This document shows, piece by piece, positions 44,208 to 52,426 of a stretch of 64,000 nt of DNA (the stretch's first letter is position 1; each line of letters begins with the position of its first letter). The DNA is from Candidatus Poribacteria bacterium (lineage in GTDB: Bacteria > Poribacteria > WGA-4E > JAJDTR01). The notes under the pieces were generated by a model. That model had not been told where the DNA came from, made no database searches, and saw only the letters and a list, made by a program, of their open reading frames with translations. The stretch covers positions 4,096,001 through 4,160,000 of the forward strand of contig CBDCTK010000002.1 in the NCBI GenBank assembly GCA_965222225.1. Direction: 5' to 3'. The translations under genes and the position numbers were made by a program.

Positions 44208-45353
44208 TTGTTAGTTCCCAATTCCCCAGAACCGCGTAATAAGAGTATGCCAATGGAAATGAAATTTAACGTCGGAATTGTCGGAGCCCGTCGAGGCACT
44301 GGGCACATTCTACCGTTTAGCACGATTACTGAAACGGAGGTGGCTGCGCTCTGTGATTTGAATGAGGAAACACTTCACACCGTCGCGACAGCGCACGGCA
44401 TAGCCAAACAATTCACGGACTATGAGAAGCTACTTGAGGACGACGATATACAGATTGTGGTGTTGGCGACTCCCGAAAATCTCCACGTCCCACAGACCAT
44501 CGCGGCGTTAAACGCGGGAAAGCATGTAATCAGTGAAGTAACGGCAGCGGTATCGCTCGATCAGTGTGCGGAATTGGTTCGGGCGGTCAGACAGAGCCGC
44601 ACGAAATATATGATGGCTGAGAATTACTGCTACCTCAAATCAAATGTGTTGATTGGCAACATGGTGCGGCAGGGGATGTTCGGGGAAATATATTTTGGCG
44701 AAGGGGAATACCTCCATAGTATCAAATCGCTTCATCACGATAGCGAAGGCAATCCAACGTGGCGCTACTACTGGCAAGTGGGCGTGAATCGTTGTAACTA
44801 CGCGACACACCACCTCGGTCCTGTGCTGCAATGGTTTAACGAACGGGTCGTAAGCGTTTGTTGCTTGGGAACCGGTGTGCACACCGACCCTGAACACACA
44901 ATGGAAGATACAGTGATGATGCTATGCAAGACGGATAGCGGCGCACTCATTAAGATCCGAGTAGATATGTTATCCAACCGTCCTGCCAACTCGTACTACA
45001 GTCTTCAAGGCACAAAAGGCTGTTATGAAGGCACACGGGGCCTTGGAGATCAGCCGAAAATTTGGTTAGAAGAGTCAGGTCGTGGTGATGAGTGGATGCC
45101 GCTTTCAGCGGTTGAGGAAGAATTCCTGCCCGAGCGATGGAAAAACCCGCCTCAAGAAGCCGCACATCTAACCGATGGACTCGGCGATTACTTCGAGCTA
45201 CGGGACTTTGTGGATTGCATCCTCAAGGACACTGAACCGCCGCTGGATGTCTATACGGCGCTGGATTTTACGGTTCCGGGCTTGGTCTCTGAGCAGTCGA
45301 TTGCCAATGGTGGCGCTCCGGTTGAAGTTCCTGACTTCCGAAACATGGACTGA
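44208..45353 (+). CDS. Gfo/Idh/MocA oxidoreductase (GH109-like); start probably ~44260
   Basis: VGIVGARRG, ATPENLH, AGKHVISEV, MMAENYCY, GEGEYLH, YATH. Confidence 0.88.
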   Translation: MLVPNSPEPRNKSMPMEMKFNVGIVGARRGTGHILPFSTITETEVAALCDLNEETLHTVATAHGIAKQFTDYEKLLEDDDIQIVVLATPENLHVPQTIAALNAGKHVISEVTAAVSLDQCAELVRAVRQSRTKYMMAENYCYLKSNVLIGNMVRQGMFGEIYFGEGEYLHSIKSLHHDSEGNPTWRYYWQVGVNRCNYATHHLGPVLQWFNERVVSVCCLGTGVHTDPEHTMEDTVMMLCKTDSGALIKIRVDMLSNRPANSYYSLQGTKGCYEGTRGLGDQPKIWLEESGRGDEWMPLSAVEEEFLPERWKNPPQEAAHLTDGLGDYFELRDFVDCILKDTEPPLDVYTALDFTVPGLVSEQSIANGGAPVEVPDFRNMD

Positions 45354-45520
45354 CTTCAGCCGGAGCCCATTCATGGTAGTCGTATTTGATATTCAGAGTT
45401 CCTACCCATAAAGGTGGCCTATCGCCCACCATGTCTATTAAGGCACGCTTCAGACGGCAAAACACACGGATTTAAACCAGGAATCCGAGACAACAAAACC
45501 GTTTGTTCACTGACGAAAGT

Positions 45521-46510
45521 ATGGAAATGAATCTCCACGAAATGAAATGCAAAGCCCTGCGGGAAGAAATGAAAAGGCGTGGACTGAAGGGATATTAATC
45601 GTTAAATAAAGCCCAACTCATCCAATATATTTCAACCGGCGTGCACCCGATTCGGCACGTTGCCGAATCTAGTGTGCGGTCGAATAAAAAGGTACAGACA
45701 GTTATTCCAAGAGTTGAGAATCATTCACCTATATCTCCGGCAGCCACGCAGAATGGTTTTCCCATAAACCAAATCTTAGCCGGTGATTGTCTAAATGTAC
45801 TTCCTTCCCTTGCTAGCAATGTTTTTGATTGTTGTATCGCCGATCCCCCGTTCAATATGTCACAAAAAAAAGGATTGGGCTGGGCGTTCAGTTCCCATAT
45901 TACGATGCAGGAAGGGTGGGATATCTTCTCAAAAGACGAATATTCCCAGTTCACACTCGATTGGGTCTCCGAGGTTCTGAGAGTCGTCAAGCCGAACGGG
46001 AATATCTTTGTTTTCGGATCGTTTCACAGTATTTTTACGTTAGGATTTATCCTTCAGAACATATTTGATCGGCGCATTATCACCCAGATTGTATGGTATA
46101 AGCCGAATGCACAGCCCAATATCACCTGTCGCATGTTTACGGAATCAACTGAATTCATTATTTGGGCAGTTAACAATGAGCGTAAAAAGGCAAAAAACTG
46201 GACATTCAATTATCATGAGATGAAGGCGATGAATAATAACAAACAGATGCGAAACATGTGGGAAATCCCGCTGACGAAGCCGTCTGAACGAAAATACGGA
46301 AAACATCCTTCACAGAAACCGCTAGCAGTGGTTGAACGGCTAATTTTGGCGGGCACGAACGAAGACGACCTGATTCTAGATCCGTTTTCCGGAACCGGAA
46401 CAACCGGAATTGGTGCACAAAAGAACAATCGAAAATGGGTGATGATTGAGAAAGAAGAATTCTATAATCAGATTGCTCGACGGCGACTTGAAGAGTTAGC
46501 CGGCGAATAA
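45521..46510 (+). CDS. Beta-class amino-DNA methyltransferase (DpnA/M2.DpnII-like). An N-terminal Rho_N/HeH-like domain is cut off by an in-frame TAA at 45596; the MTase ORF 45641..46510 is intact
   Basis: Motif IV ADPPF precedes motif I DPFSGTGTTG. WYKPNAQPNITCRMFTESTEFIIWA and KQMRNMW...GKHPSQKP resemble DpnA. Confidence 0.88.
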
Positions 46511-46537
46511 TGAGTGTTCATTATAGAGGAGTTTGAC

Positions 46538-47149
46538 ATGCAAAGGCAGGAAGCACTCTCGAAACTGTCAGAGCTTATCAACCAAGACCTGCGTTTTCTT
46601 GCGAATCAATATGAAGTAACGGTTTTCAAGGGAGACAAACCAAATAAGGGTTGGGCATGGCACGTTCTTGAGCGTCATCTTAACTTACCAATCAACTCTG
46701 CTCAAGCACCAAACTTTGGTTCTTGGGAATTGAAGGTAGTTCCTCCGAAGTATCTAAAAAGTGGAAAGTTGACAATCAAGGAAACAATGGCAATTACGAT
46801 GATTGATGCCTACAATGTTGAACATACCGATTTCCAAGATAGCCATCTGTTCACCAAACTCAGGAAACTAATAGTTGCTGCCAGAATCTGGGAGAGTCAG
46901 CAGGAAGAACGATCTGTGCTTCATATTGTGACAACCTTTGACCTTGACAATCCCAAGATATACAGTCAAATTAAAGCGGATTATGATTTAGTCAGAGAGA
47001 CAATCCGCACGAAAGGTTTTTCGGCTTTGACCGGAAAAATGGGGGTATATATTCAACCAAGGACAAAGGGGCCTGGACATGGTAGTATGTCACGAGCGTT
47101 TTACGCAAGAACCACCTTCCTTAAGCAGTTCATTTTTCCGTCGCTTTGA
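46538..47149 (+). CDS. MutH/Sau3AI-family endonuclease
   Basis: NKGWAxHVLE, PNF...ELK, ETMAIT, YIQPRTKG and RAFY follow the MutH pattern. GAGGAG precedes ATG 46538. Confidence 0.8.
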   Translation: MQRQEALSKLSELINQDLRFLANQYEVTVFKGDKPNKGWAWHVLERHLNLPINSAQAPNFGSWELKVVPPKYLKSGKLTIKETMAITMIDAYNVEHTDFQDSHLFTKLRKLIVAARIWESQQEERSVLHIVTTFDLDNPKIYSQIKADYDLVRETIRTKGFSALTGKMGVYIQPRTKGPGHGSMSRAFYARTTFLKQFIFPSL

Positions 47150-47263
47150 AGACATAAAATCCGCGCAAAAACAGATGCGTTGAATTGACAATTAGAACAT
47201 ATTCCGTTTTGAATCACGAGGAATCGCCAACCCTACCAACAGACCGGCGACAAACACTGTACG

Positions 47264-49222
47264 ATGGACACAAAACCAACCTTCCAGACCATTACCCAGA
47301 GTAAAACTTCAACTCCAGTAGATCCTGTAGTAGCGGCGGAGGTTGGTCTAGAGAGGGGCAAAATCGGCAAACTGCATCTGGAGCGGAATGGCGCAGCCAT
47401 CCCACCCTTGTCAACACCGATTTTGTACCCCGTAGTTTCATTCATGACCGGTTCGACGCCGCGCGGCGGGGGTTTGTGGAAGTACCTACTTCGAGATTTC
47501 ATGAAGAACGATGTGCCGATGTTGTCGCAAGTCCTGCACTTTCTGGATTTCCCTATCAACGGTAAGAGTTTGGCGAAATGGCGAAGTAAAACCGTTCGTG
47601 AGTGGTATCGTGAGGTCAATGGACCATACGAAGCGCCGCTCCTGCTCGATTCCGGCGGATTCAAACTGCTTTATAACACGGGGCTAGATCTCTCTGAGTT
47701 CGGCATTAACGCAGAAACGGAAGCGGATGATATACTCGCACTCCAGGACGACATGGGTGGGGACATGATTGCTTCTCTGGACTACCCGCTTCCACCGGGG
47801 CTGGATCGATCGGAAGCCGAAAGGCGGATGAACCGCAGCCTGAAAAATGCCTTTAGGGTAGCGGAATGCATCGCCGATCGCCGTAACCCGCCATATCTGT
47901 ACATCTGTTGTCATGGACAATCCCGGGTTGACATTGAAGAGTACGTCCAGAAGGTTTTTGACAGGCTTCTGGGAGTCTTACCATCGTTTGGACTTGCGGT
48001 TGGCTCTCTCGTACCGCTGCGAGGAAAAAAGGATTCGGAAGTATTGGAGCGGATATTGGGAGTGGTAAACGGAATACCGGAATCGGAGCGACATCGGACG
48101 CCGATTCACGCCTTCGGCGTTTCAGGTGAACTTGCCCCCATACTCGCTTACATGGGAATTGATAGCTTTGACAGCACAAGTTACATTCAAGCTGCTCGCG
48201 GCCTCAACTATTCCCATCCCGAAACGCGGCGGAAGCAGAAAATTATGGAGTTAGACGAAACGGTGTGCACTTGCCGCATCTGCCGCGAGGTGTCGCTTGA
48301 TGAAATGCACCTTGCCCTGTCGGATGCAGTAAGTTATAGGAAGACTTCAACCGGGAAGTACAAGAGCGAATACTATGCCGCCATCGCTTTGCACAACTTT
48401 GAGATGGAAGCGGGGTTACTTTCCCGTATGAAAGAAGCTATTGAGAGCGAAGACTCGCTTGAAGAGTTGGTTCGTCACGCGCAGGTAGGACGAGGCATCA
48501 ATAGAGCAGTAGGCTGGCTGCTTGAGAATGATGAGATTTTTGCCAGTAAGATGGCGAAAACTGTCTTTGAGGCCACCGATTCACGGGGCAAATCCGCCCT
48601 TCCAATTGGGCGGAATCCGTATCAACTCGAACTCTTCACGGGATCCTTGACAGCGGAAGGAAATGGCGAGGAATCGCGATCAATCTCGCTCAATTATACA
48701 CCTGATTCCTTTTCCATTCCCGATGATTATGCTCCCCCTAAGGACAAAGACGTACTGCTGGTTATTCCGTGTGCCGGGAAAAAGCCGTATTCACTGTCGC
48801 GCACACACGCTATTGTCAATACCAAACTTCAGACGGCCTTCGGTGAAGCGGGAACTTCCATCCACAGAATTACCCTTTCGGGACTTTACGGACCCGTGCC
48901 GGAGGAATATGAATCTGAAGAAGCTGTCCTCCGATACGATTTTCAGTTGTCACCGAGAAATACCGCGAAAATACAGCTCGGTGCGGATCGGCTCTGCGCC
49001 TATCTGGAGAAGTATGCCAATCACTACAAGCTGATTGTCGGATACGCGACAAGCCAAGCTTATCGCAAAGTGTTTGAACTCACCCGATCCAGACGGTCAG
49101 ACTTTGTTTTGCTGCCGACGAAACCGAAACAGAATCGACTCACCGAGTTTTTCCGGCACGTTCACCTTGATGAACTCGTTGAGGTTTTGTCAACTGTAGC
49201 GCAACCACTGAGCAAAGAATAA
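47264..49222 (+). CDS. TGT/DpdA-like guanine transglycosylase fused to an ArcS/DUF5591-like C-terminal domain
   Basis: TPILYPV, LDSGGF, SLDYP, HAFG, GIDSFDS, Zn site CTCRIC...LHN. C-terminal VIPCAGKKPYSLSRTH and LSGLYGPVPEEYE...YDF. Confidence 0.85.
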   Translation: MDTKPTFQTITQSKTSTPVDPVVAAEVGLERGKIGKLHLERNGAAIPPLSTPILYPVVSFMTGSTPRGGGLWKYLLRDFMKNDVPMLSQVLHFLDFPINGKSLAKWRSKTVREWYREVNGPYEAPLLLDSGGFKLLYNTGLDLSEFGINAETEADDILALQDDMGGDMIASLDYPLPPGLDRSEAERRMNRSLKNAFRVAECIADRRNPPYLYICCHGQSRVDIEEYVQKVFDRLLGVLPSFGLAVGSLVPLRGKKDSEVLERILGVVNGIPESERHRTPIHAFGVSGELAPILAYMGIDSFDSTSYIQAARGLNYSHPETRRKQKIMELDETVCTCRICREVSLDEMHLALSDAVSYRKTSTGKYKSEYYAAIALHNFEMEAGLLSRMKEAIESEDSLEELVRHAQVGRGINRAVGWLLENDEIFASKMAKTVFEATDSRGKSALPIGRNPYQLELFTGSLTAEGNGEESRSISLNYTPDSFSIPDDYAPPKDKDVLLVIPCAGKKPYSLSRTHAIVNTKLQTAFGEAGTSIHRITLSGLYGPVPEEYESEEAVLRYDFQLSPRNTAKIQLGADRLCAYLEKYANHYKLIVGYATSQAYRKVFELTRSRRSDFVLLPTKPKQNRLTEFFRHVHLDELVEVLSTVAQPLSKE

Positions 49223-49228
49223 GTTGAT

Positions 49229-49723
49229 ATGTACCAATATCGAATGGCGAAAACAGACGATTTGAAGCGAATTGTGGAAATCGAGATGCGATCGGAGATC
49301 CAATCCAATCCATCTTGTCGAGAGAAGCATCAGATTGGCTTCGATACTCGCTACCGTTGGTGGACCGATTATTTTAATCGCACCAGCCACACCGAAACGA
49401 TCAGTGTTCATCGGACGATATACGTTGCTATGATTAAGCTGAATATTGTCGGATACATCGCCGGACATCTGACCTCTCAACCCGATCCGCAAGGCGAGAT
49501 TCAGTCGATGAACGTCCTGAAACCGCAGTGGGGAAAAGGAGCGGGAGTAAACCTGCTTAGGAATCTGGCAAGGTGGTTCAAGAAGCAAGGCGTCGCGTCC
49601 GTCTGTGTGCATGTGCCAGAGCATAGCCCATATAAGGAATTCTATGCCCAACACGGTGCTACGGCTGTGAATGACTCCCTTTGTCGGTGGGATAACATCG
49701 GCGAGGTGACAGAAGAATCGTAA
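49229..49723 (+). CDS. GNAT-family N-acetyltransferase
   Basis: VLKPQWGKGAGVNLL acetyl-CoA motif and EFYAQHG; 6 nt after the TGT gene. Confidence 0.82.
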   Translation: MYQYRMAKTDDLKRIVEIEMRSEIQSNPSCREKHQIGFDTRYRWWTDYFNRTSHTETISVHRTIYVAMIKLNIVGYIAGHLTSQPDPQGEIQSMNVLKPQWGKGAGVNLLRNLARWFKKQGVASVCVHVPEHSPYKEFYAQHGATAVNDSLCRWDNIGEVTEES

Positions 49724-49739
49724 CACCCATAACGAGATA

Positions 49740-50798
49740 ATGAGTAGCCCTTGGTTAATCTCTCAAAAAGCCGATCTAAGCTTTTTTTTCTTGCCCCTAA
49801 TCGTTATTTGGGTGGTAATATTCCTGTTGCCGTCTTCCGTCCTTGACCACGATTTGCCCTTGTGGGCATGGGCAGTATTCATCCTGGGATTTGATGTAAG
49901 CCATGTTTGGAGCACGTTGTTCCGAACCTACATCGACAAGGATGAAACCGAGAGGTTGGGACGAAAGGCGTGGTCGATCCCGCTCCTCTCTTTTCTTGCC
50001 GTTTTCGTCGTATGCTCATTGTCGATTGACGTGTTTTGGCGATTATTGGCATATCTCGCTGTTTCTCATTTCGCGAAACAGCAGTTCGGTTTTCTCGCTC
50101 TTTACCGAATCAGACAGGGAAGAATTAGCAAACGTATTCCGGACAAACTAGCAATTTACCTAGCGGTTCTTTATCCTGTCGTCTACTGGCATTTGGCTCA
50201 AGACAGGTCATTTGAATGGTTTGTGTCGGGCGATTTCGTGTTTCTTAAGCACTTCCAACTACCGCATCAAAAACTAATCATTACCAATGTATTGTACTGG
50301 ACGATCTTGGCAGGTTGGTTAATAGAGGAATGCATTACTTCTGTCAAACAGGTCGGCAAGATAGCTTATGGCAAAATCGCTTGGGTATTGGTCACCGCGT
50401 TCAACTGGTATTTCGGGATTGTACACTTCAACTCCGACATTGTTTTCTCCGTTACCAACGTAGTTGCGCACGGTCTACCGTATATGACATTGGTTGTTTG
50501 GTATAACATAAGGAAAAACGCGAGTTTGAATCAATCTGTGCCGATATTCCAAATGATTTTCACCGTTGTATTTGGAGCTATATTGTTGGCATATATTGAG
50601 GAGTTTGGCTGGGATATGCTGCTATTTAGAGAGAGAGGCGAGTTATTTCCGGCTTATTTCATCGGTCTCTTTGAAGGTTCACTGGCGATTGCTTTTGCGT
50701 ATGCGCTACTGGCTTTGCCACAAATCACTCATTACATTCTTGATGGAATCATCTGGAAAAACAGCGCATCAAATCCTCACGTGAAACAGATGCTGTAG
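49740..50798 (+). CDS. Polytopic membrane protein with conserved His motifs
   Basis: DVSHVWSTLFRTY, HFAKQQFGF, NVVAHGLPY, THYILDGIIW. Confidence 0.65.
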   Translation: MSSPWLISQKADLSFFFLPLIVIWVVIFLLPSSVLDHDLPLWAWAVFILGFDVSHVWSTLFRTYIDKDETERLGRKAWSIPLLSFLAVFVVCSLSIDVFWRLLAYLAVSHFAKQQFGFLALYRIRQGRISKRIPDKLAIYLAVLYPVVYWHLAQDRSFEWFVSGDFVFLKHFQLPHQKLIITNVLYWTILAGWLIEECITSVKQVGKIAYGKIAWVLVTAFNWYFGIVHFNSDIVFSVTNVVAHGLPYMTLVVWYNIRKNASLNQSVPIFQMIFTVVFGAILLAYIEEFGWDMLLFRERGELFPAYFIGLFEGSLAIAFAYALLALPQITHYILDGIIWKNSASNPHVKQML

Positions 50799-50826
50799 GC
50801 CGGTGCGAAGGAGAAAGAAGCACATT

Positions 50827-51549
50827 ATGGAGTTGTACCCGATTCGCCACGGTCAGTCGACCAACAACCGTGGAGATGCGCGTGTCTCTGATCCATCGCT
50901 GACGGAGCTCGGGAGGCAGCAAGCGACCAGAGCAGGACTGGCGCTGAGAAACCTGGGTATCACGCGCCTTTAATGTAGTGCGATGCTTCGTGCGGTGCAA
51001 ACCGCCACAATTGTTGGAGAACACTTGGGACATGCCCCGCATGTTTTCGTGGGAATTCACGAGTGGGGCGGCGTTTGGGAAGATCGGGTTGATGGTGGTA
51101 TGGATCAACTGCCGGGACTAACACGATCGCAGTTGCGCGATGCCTGTCCGACAGCCGTGTTGCCAGATGATGTAACGGACGAAGGTTGGTGCATTCAAGC
51201 ATTCGACGCCCACGAACTAGCGTACGGAGGGAACGATGAACAAATGCTGGGCTTGGCACACGAAAATTGCCTTCGATTCATCGCCCACTTGGACCACCAC
51301 CACCACGCAAGAGAACATGAAAAGGTCGGGGCAATTTTGCACGGTGGATCCGGATCAATGCTGCTCGGTGCATTTTTTGGTTTGCTACCAAATGAAACTC
51401 AAAATCGCTTCCCGCACAACAACGCCGGAATCACGAAAATTATTAGAACTCCGAAGTATACCCAGTTGCTTTATCAAAACCAGACCAGCCATCTATTGAA
51501 AGAGAGTGAATTCGACCTAGAAGCCAGTTCTCCCATGGTAATTTGGTGA
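50827..51549 (+). pseudogene. Histidine phosphatase paralog with a nonsense codon
   Basis: RHGQS motif; TAA at 50971..50973 where the paralog has TAT; the rest stays in frame. Confidence 0.88.
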
Positions 51550-51703: not shown

Positions 51704-52426
51704 ATGGAATTGTACCTAATTCGCCACGGTCAGTCGACCAACAACCGTGGAGATGCGCGTGTTCCTGAGACACCGCTGACAGAGATCGGAAAGCAGCAAG
51801 CGGACAGATCGGGACGGGCGTTGAAGAACTTGGGTGTCACGCGCCTTTATTTCAGCGCGATGCTCCGTGCGGTGCAAACCGCCACAATTGTTGGAGAACA
51901 CTTGGGACATGCCCCGCATGTATTCGTGGGAATTCACGAGTGGGGCGGCCTTTGGGAAGATCGGGTTGATGGTGGTATGGATCAGCTACCGGGACTAACA
52001 CGATCGCAGTTGCGCGATCTCTGTCCAAAAGTGGTGTTACCAAATGATGTGACAGACAACGGTTGGTGGTTTCCATCGTCTGTCAATGATAAACCGGTAT
52101 CGGCATGGGACTATGCGCAGATGCTCCAATTGATTCACAGAAACTGCCGTGGGTTCATCGCGCATTTGGAGCAACACCACGGTGGGGAAGCTGAGAAGAT
52201 CGGAGCAATTATACACGGAGGCTCCGGCTCAATCCTAATCGGAGCCCTGCTAGGGATGCCACTGCCAAACGAATTTCCAGAGCGCTTCCCACACAATAAC
52301 ACCGGCATCACGAAAATTCGAAGAACCCACGAGCACACACAGTTACTGTATCATAACCAAACCGGTCATCTACTGAAGAATTGTGAGTTCAGTCAAGAAG
52401 CTAGCTCCCCATTACTAACATGGTGA
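51704..52426 (+). CDS. Histidine phosphatase (phosphoglycerate mutase-like)
   Basis: LIRHGQS, SAMLRAVQTA, IIHGG, HNNTGIT. Confidence 0.9.
   Translation: MELYLIRHGQSTNNRGDARVPETPLTEIGKQQADRSGRALKNLGVTRLYFSAMLRAVQTATIVGEHLGHAPHVFVGIHEWGGLWEDRVDGGMDQLPGLTRSQLRDLCPKVVLPNDVTDNGWWFPSSVNDKPVSAWDYAQMLQLIHRNCRGFIAHLEQHHGGEAEKIGAIIHGGSGSILIGALLGMPLPNEFPERFPHNNTGITKIRRTHEHTQLLYHNQTGHLLKNCEFSQEASSPLLTW

Follow-up and report, generated by a model that had tools for sequence, protein, structure and literature searches.

To our knowledge, the 7-deazaguanine marks of cellular DNA are known only as dPreQ0 and dADG, both from the bacterial Dpd system, and the archaeosine-type mark dG+ is known from viruses only. 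Without RaSEA, euryarchaeal ArcS makes a preQ0-lysine adduct. Passages of PMC10516641 report that DpdA2 of Vibrio phage nt-1 by itself yields dPreQ0 in plasmid DNA and that, together with ArcS2 (a stand-alone DUF5591 protein), it yields dG+. According to parts of PMC11298593, the ArcS of T. kodakarensis transfers lysine to preQ0, accepts the preQ0 nucleoside and its 5'-monophosphate, and gives a product that ArcTGT no longer exchanges back. Three active-site aspartates are invariant across tRNA-guanine transglycosylases (TGTs) and DpdAs (PMC10164549); in arcTGT, D95 and D249 have been named catalytic, and V198 is the location of the preQ0/preQ1 specificity switch (PMC5699537). The ArcS motif is defined as PC-X3-KPY-X2-S-X2-H where it is quoted in sections of PMC10516641 and PMC5699537. 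Here, we describe a gene that joins a TGT-like domain and a DUF5591 domain in one polypeptide, found in a 64,000-nucleotide stretch of a Candidatus Poribacteria genome (assembly GCA_965222225.1, contig CBDCTK010000002.1, positions 4,096,001 to 4,160,000 of the forward strand; hereafter the window).

Two Pfam families were identified in the fusion protein: TGT (PF01702) at residues 123-405, with 59.6 bits against a cut-off of 26.3, and DUF5591 (PF17884) at residues 487-610, with 50.5 bits against a gathering cut-off of 26. The C terminus lies about 40 residues past the latter match. An earlier note on this DNA had placed an archaeosine-synthase-like domain at 48680-49222, which corresponds to residues 473-652, and both strings that it quoted were located in the translation (VIPCAGKKPYSLSRTH at residues 500-515 and LSGLYGPVPEEYE...YDF at residues 538-560). 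It had also described the protein as free of a PUA domain, in agreement with Pfam, which matched neither PUA nor TGT_C2 in the fusion protein. Among NCBIfam models, ArcS alpha (NF040592) was the top match at 77.4 bits, the equivalog cut-off of 440 not being reached, and its best stretch aligned residues 488-610 with model positions 288-404. TgtA/arcTGT (TIGR00432) gave 76.9 bits, below its equivalog cut-off of 350 and with the C1-C3/PUA domains not found; tgt_general (TIGR00449) gave 66.1 bits, above its cut-off of 47.6. Bacterial queuosine Tgt (TIGR00430; 31 bits, cut-off of 306.75 not reached) and the DpdA models (NF041059, 17.2 bits against a cut-off of 200; PADLOC PDLC02807, 16.2 bits) scored lower. 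Because of where these Pfam and NCBIfam scores fall relative to their cut-offs, the fusion protein is, as judged by sequence, a member of the TGT superfamily with a DUF5591 domain that lies outside all curated equivalog families. The earlier description of a bacterial TGT carrying an added domain does not fit well, as a TGT-like domain followed by C1 is the order of ArcS itself, minus C2 and PUA.

The predicted structure was in line with this architecture. A full-length AlphaFold2 model, with a mean predicted local distance difference test (pLDDT) of 83.8 and a predicted template modeling score (pTM) of 0.83, comprised a TGT barrel capped by helices, a linker, and a compact alpha/beta C-domain; secondary structure was confident through residue 432, and pLDDT fell below 50 at residues 434-470, the linker, which differs in length and sequence among homologues. 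In a Foldseek search, the full model recovered arcTGT (1iq8) first (E 2e-18) and bacterial TGTs thereafter, at target-normalized TM-scores of 0.74-0.79; by sequence, 1iq8 matched the N-domain at E 3.6e-11. That list was dominated by TGT structures and was uninformative on the C-domain, which was modeled separately (pLDDT 89.6). For this second model, the sole PDB match below E 1e-3 was AF0587 (2q07; E 9e-6), a structure that the C-domain profile also matched at E 7e-11, and among viral models the DUF5591 protein of Vibrio phage nt-1 was recovered at E 1.2e-5 and a query-normalized TM-score of 0.66. The C-domain has the Rossmann-like alpha/beta fold of AF0587 and phage ArcS2. A fold of the DUF6884/YaaA type had been raised earlier as what the domain might instead be. 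Such proteins matched the C-domain model weakly (E ~1e-2, query-normalized TM-scores of 0.42-0.51), the corresponding Pfam families for DUF6884/DpdC/YaaA (PF21818, PF03883) had no match in the fusion protein at E<=0.01, and the DUF5591 match was stronger. The DUF5591 assignments are beyond chance, and the archaeosine-synthase-like C-terminal domain is real, being of the DUF5591/ArcS-C1 type by Pfam, profile, fold, full motif, and conserved cysteine.

Residue conservation was assessed in two homologue alignments: one of 24 sequences with 34-85% identity to the window protein, from five phyla (Poribacteria, Cyanobacteriota, Chloroflexota, Planctomycetota, and Acidobacteriota), and one of 51 long, distant representatives from a 50%-clustered library, in which some residue misses may be misalignment. 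The aspartates and zinc site expected of a TGT were retained throughout the former (Table 1), and in the latter the zinc ligands were kept at C335 in 50/51, C337 in 49/51, C340 in 49/51, and H377 in 51/51. A HMMER alignment to arcTGT 1iq8 placed D173 on D130, D303 on D249, and C335/C337 on C279/C281; the D173 and D303 equivalences were counted by hand along this alignment, and that of D129 with D95 follows from the common DSG[GS]F motif. The same alignment set a valine at fusion residue 250 against arcTGT V198, a match that is suggestive only but may hint at preQ0 specificity, as in the preQ0-specific arcTGT. In the ArcS signature, P502, C503, K507, P508, Y509, and S512 were identical in all 24 homologues and H515 in 22, a phenylalanine replacing it in the two NurA/HerA-linked members. 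Conservation of the motif cysteine, which the earlier note had left to be checked, thus extends to every one of the 24 homologues and to 45 of the 51 distant representatives; H515 was kept in 30 of the 51. Because none of the 24 sequences has a substitution at the catalytic aspartates, the zinc site, or the ArcS-core cysteine, the TGT half and the ArcS-core half both look active. That one protein might both insert a base and modify it further, as had been suggested, is the natural reading of a TGT domain that keeps every catalytic residue.

We consider it probable, with moderate confidence, that the fusion protein unites in a single chain the roles of phage DpdA and ArcS2 and that dG+ or a preQ0 adduct is the mark it leaves in cellular DNA. 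In the first step, to go by the conserved residues, the arcTGT-like domain would remove the target guanine by way of an intermediate in which Asp303 is covalently bound to the sugar, Asp129 acting as acid/base, and the step would end with the insertion of preQ0 supplied by the host queuosine pathway. The host, a sponge symbiont, has a 5.7-Mb genome encoding a canonical tgt (C2:426066-427100; 549 bits) as well as queC, PTPS/QueD-like genes, and queF, so that preQ0 is made in the cell. In the second step, the tethered ArcS-C1 domain would employ Cys503 to add an amine to the nitrile, and the outcome would be an archaeosine-type formamidine (G+) or else an adduct with an amino acid, for example preQ0-lysine. 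Amine addition would also block reverse exchange, the second step thereby locking the first; since the ArcS adduct is no longer exchanged by ArcTGT, a fusion of writer and converter has a rationale. The target would be the cell's own DNA, as the genomic context suggests, and the protein would serve as the marking half of restriction-modification (RM)-like defense modules. A more ambitious and quite improbable version is that the product is a DNA base so far undescribed, a preQ0-amino-acid adduct such as 2'-deoxy-preQ0-lysine, which the co-oriented acetyltransferase (GNAT) of the window's clade might N-acetylate and which would act as the self-mark of a family of restriction-like defense systems across bacteria and archaea. 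The new hypermodified base proposed in the earlier note is conjectural; dG+ is already known in phage DNA, as the product of DpdA2 plus ArcS2.

The case for DNA comes from the neighborhoods of the family in other lineages. A GTDB pattern scan with one genome per species yielded 67 loci (42 Poribacteria-type, 16 cyanobacterial, 7 Chloroflexota, 1 Kuenenia, and 1 Blastocatellia), and open reading frames (ORFs) were called in all of these plus the window and then clustered. No neighbor was universal, and the recurrent ones were mostly of restriction or defense types. In cyanobacteria, a GmrSD_N/NsnA-like protein (PADLOC NsnA, 206 bits) and a HEPN protein were encoded directly downstream in 10/16 loci. 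A DpdJ-like DEAD/MZB helicase of up to 1463 aa (PADLOC DpdJ, 195 bits) was present in 6 loci, and in L067 the fusion gene, helicase, GmrSD_N, and HEPN were four consecutive genes. In Thermosporothrix and a Blastocatellia genome, NurA and HerA lay directly upstream, co-oriented and closely spaced, the first two genes overlapping. The family was accompanied by a PLD-SNF2 protein in 2 loci of Poribacteria and by a Uma2 nuclease in 1, and a QueD-like gene lay directly upstream of the fusion gene in 5 loci. Beyond bacteria, tblastn on plasmids recovered full-length homologues on two haloarchaeal megaplasmids (33% identity, 94% coverage); all three haloarchaeal plasmid proteins are TGT plus DUF5591 without PUA. 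The haloarchaeal islands encode DEAD helicases, PLD, a DUF6884/DpdC-like protein (a weak DpdC match, 24 bits), a short DpdA-like TGT, a GHKL ATPase, a large AAA protein, and GIY-YIG. The trait of the DpdA functional class, a PUA-less TGT paralogue clustered with DNA-metabolism or restriction genes, is therefore present in this family, and its recurrent linkage to restriction and defense genes is the strongest contextual signal, one of which the earlier note made little and that points to DNA over tRNA.

The distribution of the family was examined at several depths. Of 8000 candidates scored, 310 were homologues at E<=1e-3; among the 120 homologues listed, 116 had both domains and the other 4 had TGT only, each of them covering <=82% of the query. 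An exhaustive profile search at E<=1e-30 gave about 138 clusters at 50% identity, and the 51 long representatives included TGT in 50, DUF5591 in 49, and PUA in 1. Within Poribacteria, the fusion gene occurred in 47/151 sampled genomes (43/131 high-quality), with 56-92% identity to the window copy, and unevenly by genus (g1 6/8, g4 0/38, g5 16/20, g6 12/57). The family is coherent, PUA-less, and accessory, the last because 47 of 151 genomes carry the gene, patchily even within genera. The host genome itself holds one occurrence of DUF5591, a domain that among 14 control genomes was matched in the 3 euryarchaea only. The host also has three stand-alone ORFs of DUF6884 (DpdC/YaaA-like fold), at C2:3985828-3986160 (-), C2:1240834-1241166 (+), and C1:13610-13969 (+), two of them above the Pfam cut-off and none near a TGT gene.

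A maximum-likelihood tree of the family joined the NurA/HerA-linked sequence of Chloroflexota to that of Acidobacteriota with 100/100 support and nested two other Chloroflexota sequences among cyanobacteria. As the tree groups by neighbor type and not by taxonomy, the gene travels with its module rather than with its organism. A phage origin was considered and set aside: 44 IMG/VR pattern stretches matched the family alignment, none was confirmed, and tblastn was nil. Some organisms that carry the gene are in culture (Planktothrix PCC 9631, Microseira NIES-4236, Nostoc MG11, Thermogemmatispora PM5, and Thermosporothrix ATCC BAA-1881), so the question can be tested directly.

Some Poribacteria genomes had two or three fusion-gene matches, and some copies contained stop codons. 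The gene was split, truncated, or interrupted by TAG in L033, L058, L067, L068, L062, L063, and L052 and in G061, G001, and G114; the pattern resembles that of an accessory gene in the course of decay, and some cases may be assembly errors. Two paralogous copies were present in several genomes (L011/L031, L022/L034, L023/L040, L030/L033), one of each pair being RM-linked and the other usually flanked by housekeeping genes, with a QueD-like gene directly upstream in some loci. Such pairs may represent two specificities coexisting in one cell.

In the window, the fusion gene stands behind a DNA methyltransferase and a restriction endonuclease (Table 1), the latter with an NCBIfam Sau3AI-family score of 54.8 bits, below the cut-off. 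The same endonuclease gene was found between methyltransferase and fusion gene in 4 other loci as well. Methyltransferase orthologues occurred in 54/151 genomes, 15 of which hold the fusion gene too and 39 the methyltransferase alone; in 14/15 genomes with both, the methyltransferase precedes the fusion gene by 42-928 bp, in at least four outer synteny backgrounds. Simple vertical co-inheritance of a three-gene unit was not supported, as methyltransferase identity to the window copy is flat (72-86%) and does not follow TGT identity (64-92%). In genus g6, the methyltransferase carriers (10) and the fusion-gene carriers (12) are disjoint. We read the methyltransferase/endonuclease pair and the fusion gene as a small defense cluster, a joint mechanism not being implied.

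Table 1. Features of the fusion gene and of its immediate neighbors, in window coordinates; fractions give identity in the 24-sequence alignment and, where a second is shown, among the 51 distant representatives.
Feature	Coordinates	Strand	Basis
TGT-DUF5591 fusion ORF, 652 aa	47264..49222	+	ORF list; Pfam TGT + DUF5591
TGT catalytic domain (TIM barrel, zinc subdomain, helical cap; ~residues 30-432)	47351..48559	+	Pfam, Foldseek, AlphaFold2 model
Linker, variable, predicted disordered, residues 434-470	48563..48673	+	pLDDT <50
DUF5591 / ArcS C1-type domain, single alpha/beta domain, residues 471-652	48674..49219	+	Pfam, NCBIfam stretch, fold
ArcS signature PCAGKKPYSLSRTH (PC-X3-KPY-X2-S-X2-H), residues 502-515, C503 presumed catalytic	48767..48808	+	translation
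D129, DSGGF motif, general acid/base (P. horikoshii arcTGT D95)	47648..47650	+	identical 24/24, 51/51
D173, LDYP motif, base-recognition Asp (arcTGT D130)	47780..47782	+	identical 24/24, 51/51
D303, FDSTSY motif, nucleophile (arcTGT D249)	48170..48172	+	identical 24/24, 50/51
Zinc site CxCxxC...H: C335, C337, C340, H377	48266..48394	+	identical 24/24
Beta-class N6/N4 DNA methyltransferase, CcrM-like	45641..46510	+	Pfam N6_N4_Mtase 170 bits
MutH/Sau3AI-like type II restriction endonuclease	46514..47149	+	Pfam MutH 44.9 bits
GNAT acetyltransferase, 7 nt past the fusion stop codon	49229..49723	+	Pfam Acetyltransf_1 39.8 bits

The genes downstream are of narrower distribution. Across the window and the 67 loci, a GNAT follows the fusion gene in the window itself and in 6 loci of close relatives (L006-L010, L051); because it is confined to these, it is not a core partner, and it is probably a lineage-specific gene that is not part of the system. 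The suggestion that the neighboring GNAT acylates the product was accordingly dropped, adjacency in that one clade being all that spoke for it. A second, unrelated acetyltransferase adjoins the fusion gene in another Poribacteria clade, where an Eis-like GNAT (Acetyltransf_9, ~442 aa) is encoded just upstream (L035 6259-7587, L039 5872-7209). Also rejected was a seven-gene operon of RM pair, TGT, GNAT, membrane protein, and two phosphatases: outside the window's clade, only the methyltransferase, with or without the endonuclease, recurs, and the 6 close relatives of the window locus are the only others to have the GNAT, the 352-aa membrane protein, and the phosphatases. The 352-aa ORF (49740-50798, +) looks, from its several long hydrophobic stretches, like a membrane protein with multiple passes; it was matched by neither Pfam nor NCBIfam and is kept after the GNAT in the window's clade only. 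Tandem histidine-phosphatase genes follow (50827-51549, +; 51704-52426), the first of which has an in-frame TAA at 50971-50973, at a position that is Tyr in the intact paralogue (...TRL*CSAMLRAV versus ...TRLYFSAMLRAV). Because of this stop codon, and because the 188-aa ORF in the list comprises just what lies downstream of it, the first copy is a probable pseudogene.

A scan of 45300-51200 for promoters and terminators gave counts at or below shuffle expectation. In RNA-seq libraries from 3 studies, contigs match parts of the fusion gene at >=95% likeness; the endonuclease/TGT junction lies within one of them (46645-47515) and the TGT/GNAT junction within two (48881-49591, 48977-49479). Such contigs do not prove transcription, nor does a contig over two genes show a single transcript, and they are a weak hint of expression of the fusion gene.

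Several observations weigh against a DNA-marking role. PUA is reported, in a paper cited in PMC11298593, to be dispensable for arcTGT, so that its loss is compatible with a tRNA target. The N-domain is nearer to tRNA enzymes than to DpdA, as the TgtA and DpdA scores given above attest. The DNA target is drawn from gene neighborhood alone, and loci from kin are non-independent, so adjacency counts overstate the support. Many loci of Poribacteria, among them a clade of 10 loci with stable synteny, have housekeeping neighbors and no defense gene, and in the window the RM pair is self-sufficient and may be a neighbor only. A tblastn search of 50,697 phage records found no match to the fusion protein. 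Lastly, bacterial DpdA requires DpdB (PMC10164549), for which the model NF041060 had no match in the host genome or in any of the 14 control genomes.

The alternative that survives best is the modification of tRNA or another RNA, the fusion protein then being a single-polypeptide bacterial arcTGT plus ArcS that sets an archaeosine-type base at some site in RNA, independently of the neighboring RM genes. It would account for the fact that the N-domain is matched best, in sequence and in fold, by tRNA enzymes (TgtA and 1iq8), for a domain order the same as that of ArcS, for good conservation as a chromosomal gene across Poribacteria genomes, and for the clade in which the gene is housekeeping-flanked and beside a QueD-like gene; the RNA-library contigs also agree with it, as with any expressed function. 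We nevertheless regard it as unlikely, since the tRNA-binding PUA, C2, and C3 domains are missing here, with PUA as rare as noted among the representatives, and the host already has a canonical tgt. An RNA-modifying role also sits poorly with patchy presence even within genera, with the gene's recurrent placement among nucleases and helicases, both in several phyla and on plasmids of archaea that already possess a G+ pathway, and with a tree that follows neighbor type rather than taxonomy.

We regard as very unlikely a second alternative, in which the protein is a defense effector or sensor that recognizes dPreQ0 in phage DNA and either swaps it out or converts it to a bulky adduct flagging the DNA for nucleases such as GmrSD_N/HEPN, in a type-IV-like manner. 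The cyanobacterial partners belong to the GmrSD_N (DUF262) family, known from modification-dependent restriction, and bacterial enzymes against 7-deazaguanine-modified phages exist, such as the Dag glycosylases mentioned in part of a preprint (bioRxiv 10.1101/2025.10.29.685425). Against this, a complete base-exchange site and a QueD-like neighbor in 5 loci suit writing over erasing, and the pairing of a constant core with changing nuclease partners is the pattern of a modification module. Action on free nucleosides, nucleotides, or small molecules (7-deazapurine synthesis or salvage, possibly with the GNAT and with no polymer substrate) is extremely improbable: it would agree with the nucleoside and monophosphate accepted by T. 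kodakarensis ArcS and with the neighboring GNATs of two kinds, c22 in the window's own Poribacteria clade and the Eis-like one in a second, but TGT-family enzymes exchange bases in polymers, the covalent nucleophile is conserved, the GNATs are lineage-specific, and the surroundings of the gene show no further conserved biosynthetic genes.

Taking the protein as a writer and converter of a DNA mark, it can be compared with four known systems. A literature search found no paper on a bacterial or cellular TGT-DUF5591 fusion; PMC10516641 was the sole paper found to mention DUF5591, and its supplements and those of PMC6884629 may hold bacterial members. Among solved structures, the C-domain resembles only AF0587 of Archaeoglobus fulgidus (PDB 2q07), whose PCx3KPYx2Sx2H stretch aligns with that of the fusion protein; AF0587 is an uncharacterized DUF5591 protein of 306 aa that, in contrast, has an extra C-terminal part and no TGT domain. 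Euryarchaeal ArcS and arcTGT share with the fusion protein the succession of a TGT-like domain and a C1 domain with PC-X3-KPY-X2-S-X2-H, as well as the catalytic aspartates and zinc site of arcTGT. The fusion protein differs in falling far below both equivalog cut-offs (77 versus 440 bits for ArcS, 77 versus 350 for TgtA) and in being bacterial, accessory, and without C2 or PUA, and one protein would cover the work of both enzymes. The ORF list of the window contained no radical-SAM gene beside the fusion ORF, no search having been aimed at RaSEA.

The bacterial Dpd system (DpdA/DpdB/DpdC plus DpdD-K, as in Salmonella Montevideo; PMC10164549) likewise has a PUA-less TGT paralogue linked to helicases and nucleases and follows a two-step logic, with preQ0 placed into DNA and its nitrile then converted; the DpdJ-like helicases beside the family in 6 loci add to the resemblance. 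The second step, however, would here proceed via DUF5591 (amine addition) instead of via DpdC (hydration to the amide), and the window gene lies beside a type II RM pair only and not dpdD-K. DpdA2 and ArcS2 of Vibrio phage nt-1 (Cui et al., NAR 2023), as portrayed in portions of PMC10516641, also combine a PUA-less TGT-family transglycosylase with a DUF5591 core, and the same chemistry would be expected, preQ0 being inserted and its nitrile then converted. They differ from the fusion in that both activities would here reside in one polypeptide encoded on a cellular chromosome, in the lack of sequence similarity to phage records by tblastn, and in an N-domain that is arcTGT-like and scores 17 bits on the DpdA model. 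The motif of nt-1 ArcS2 is slightly degenerate in the account given in part of PMC10516641, whereas that of the fusion protein is complete.

The family spans at least five bacterial phyla plus haloarchaeal plasmids and has at least four different nuclease/helicase partner modules. If our preferred reading is true, the fusion protein would be a compact single-gene cellular writer of an archaeosine-type DNA mark and a simple tool to install a charged or bulky 7-deazaguanine in DNA. Such a role would account for the presence of an "archaeal" domain in bacteria, and, set beside the known systems, it would extend Dpd-type immunity to a new chemistry and to new effectors.

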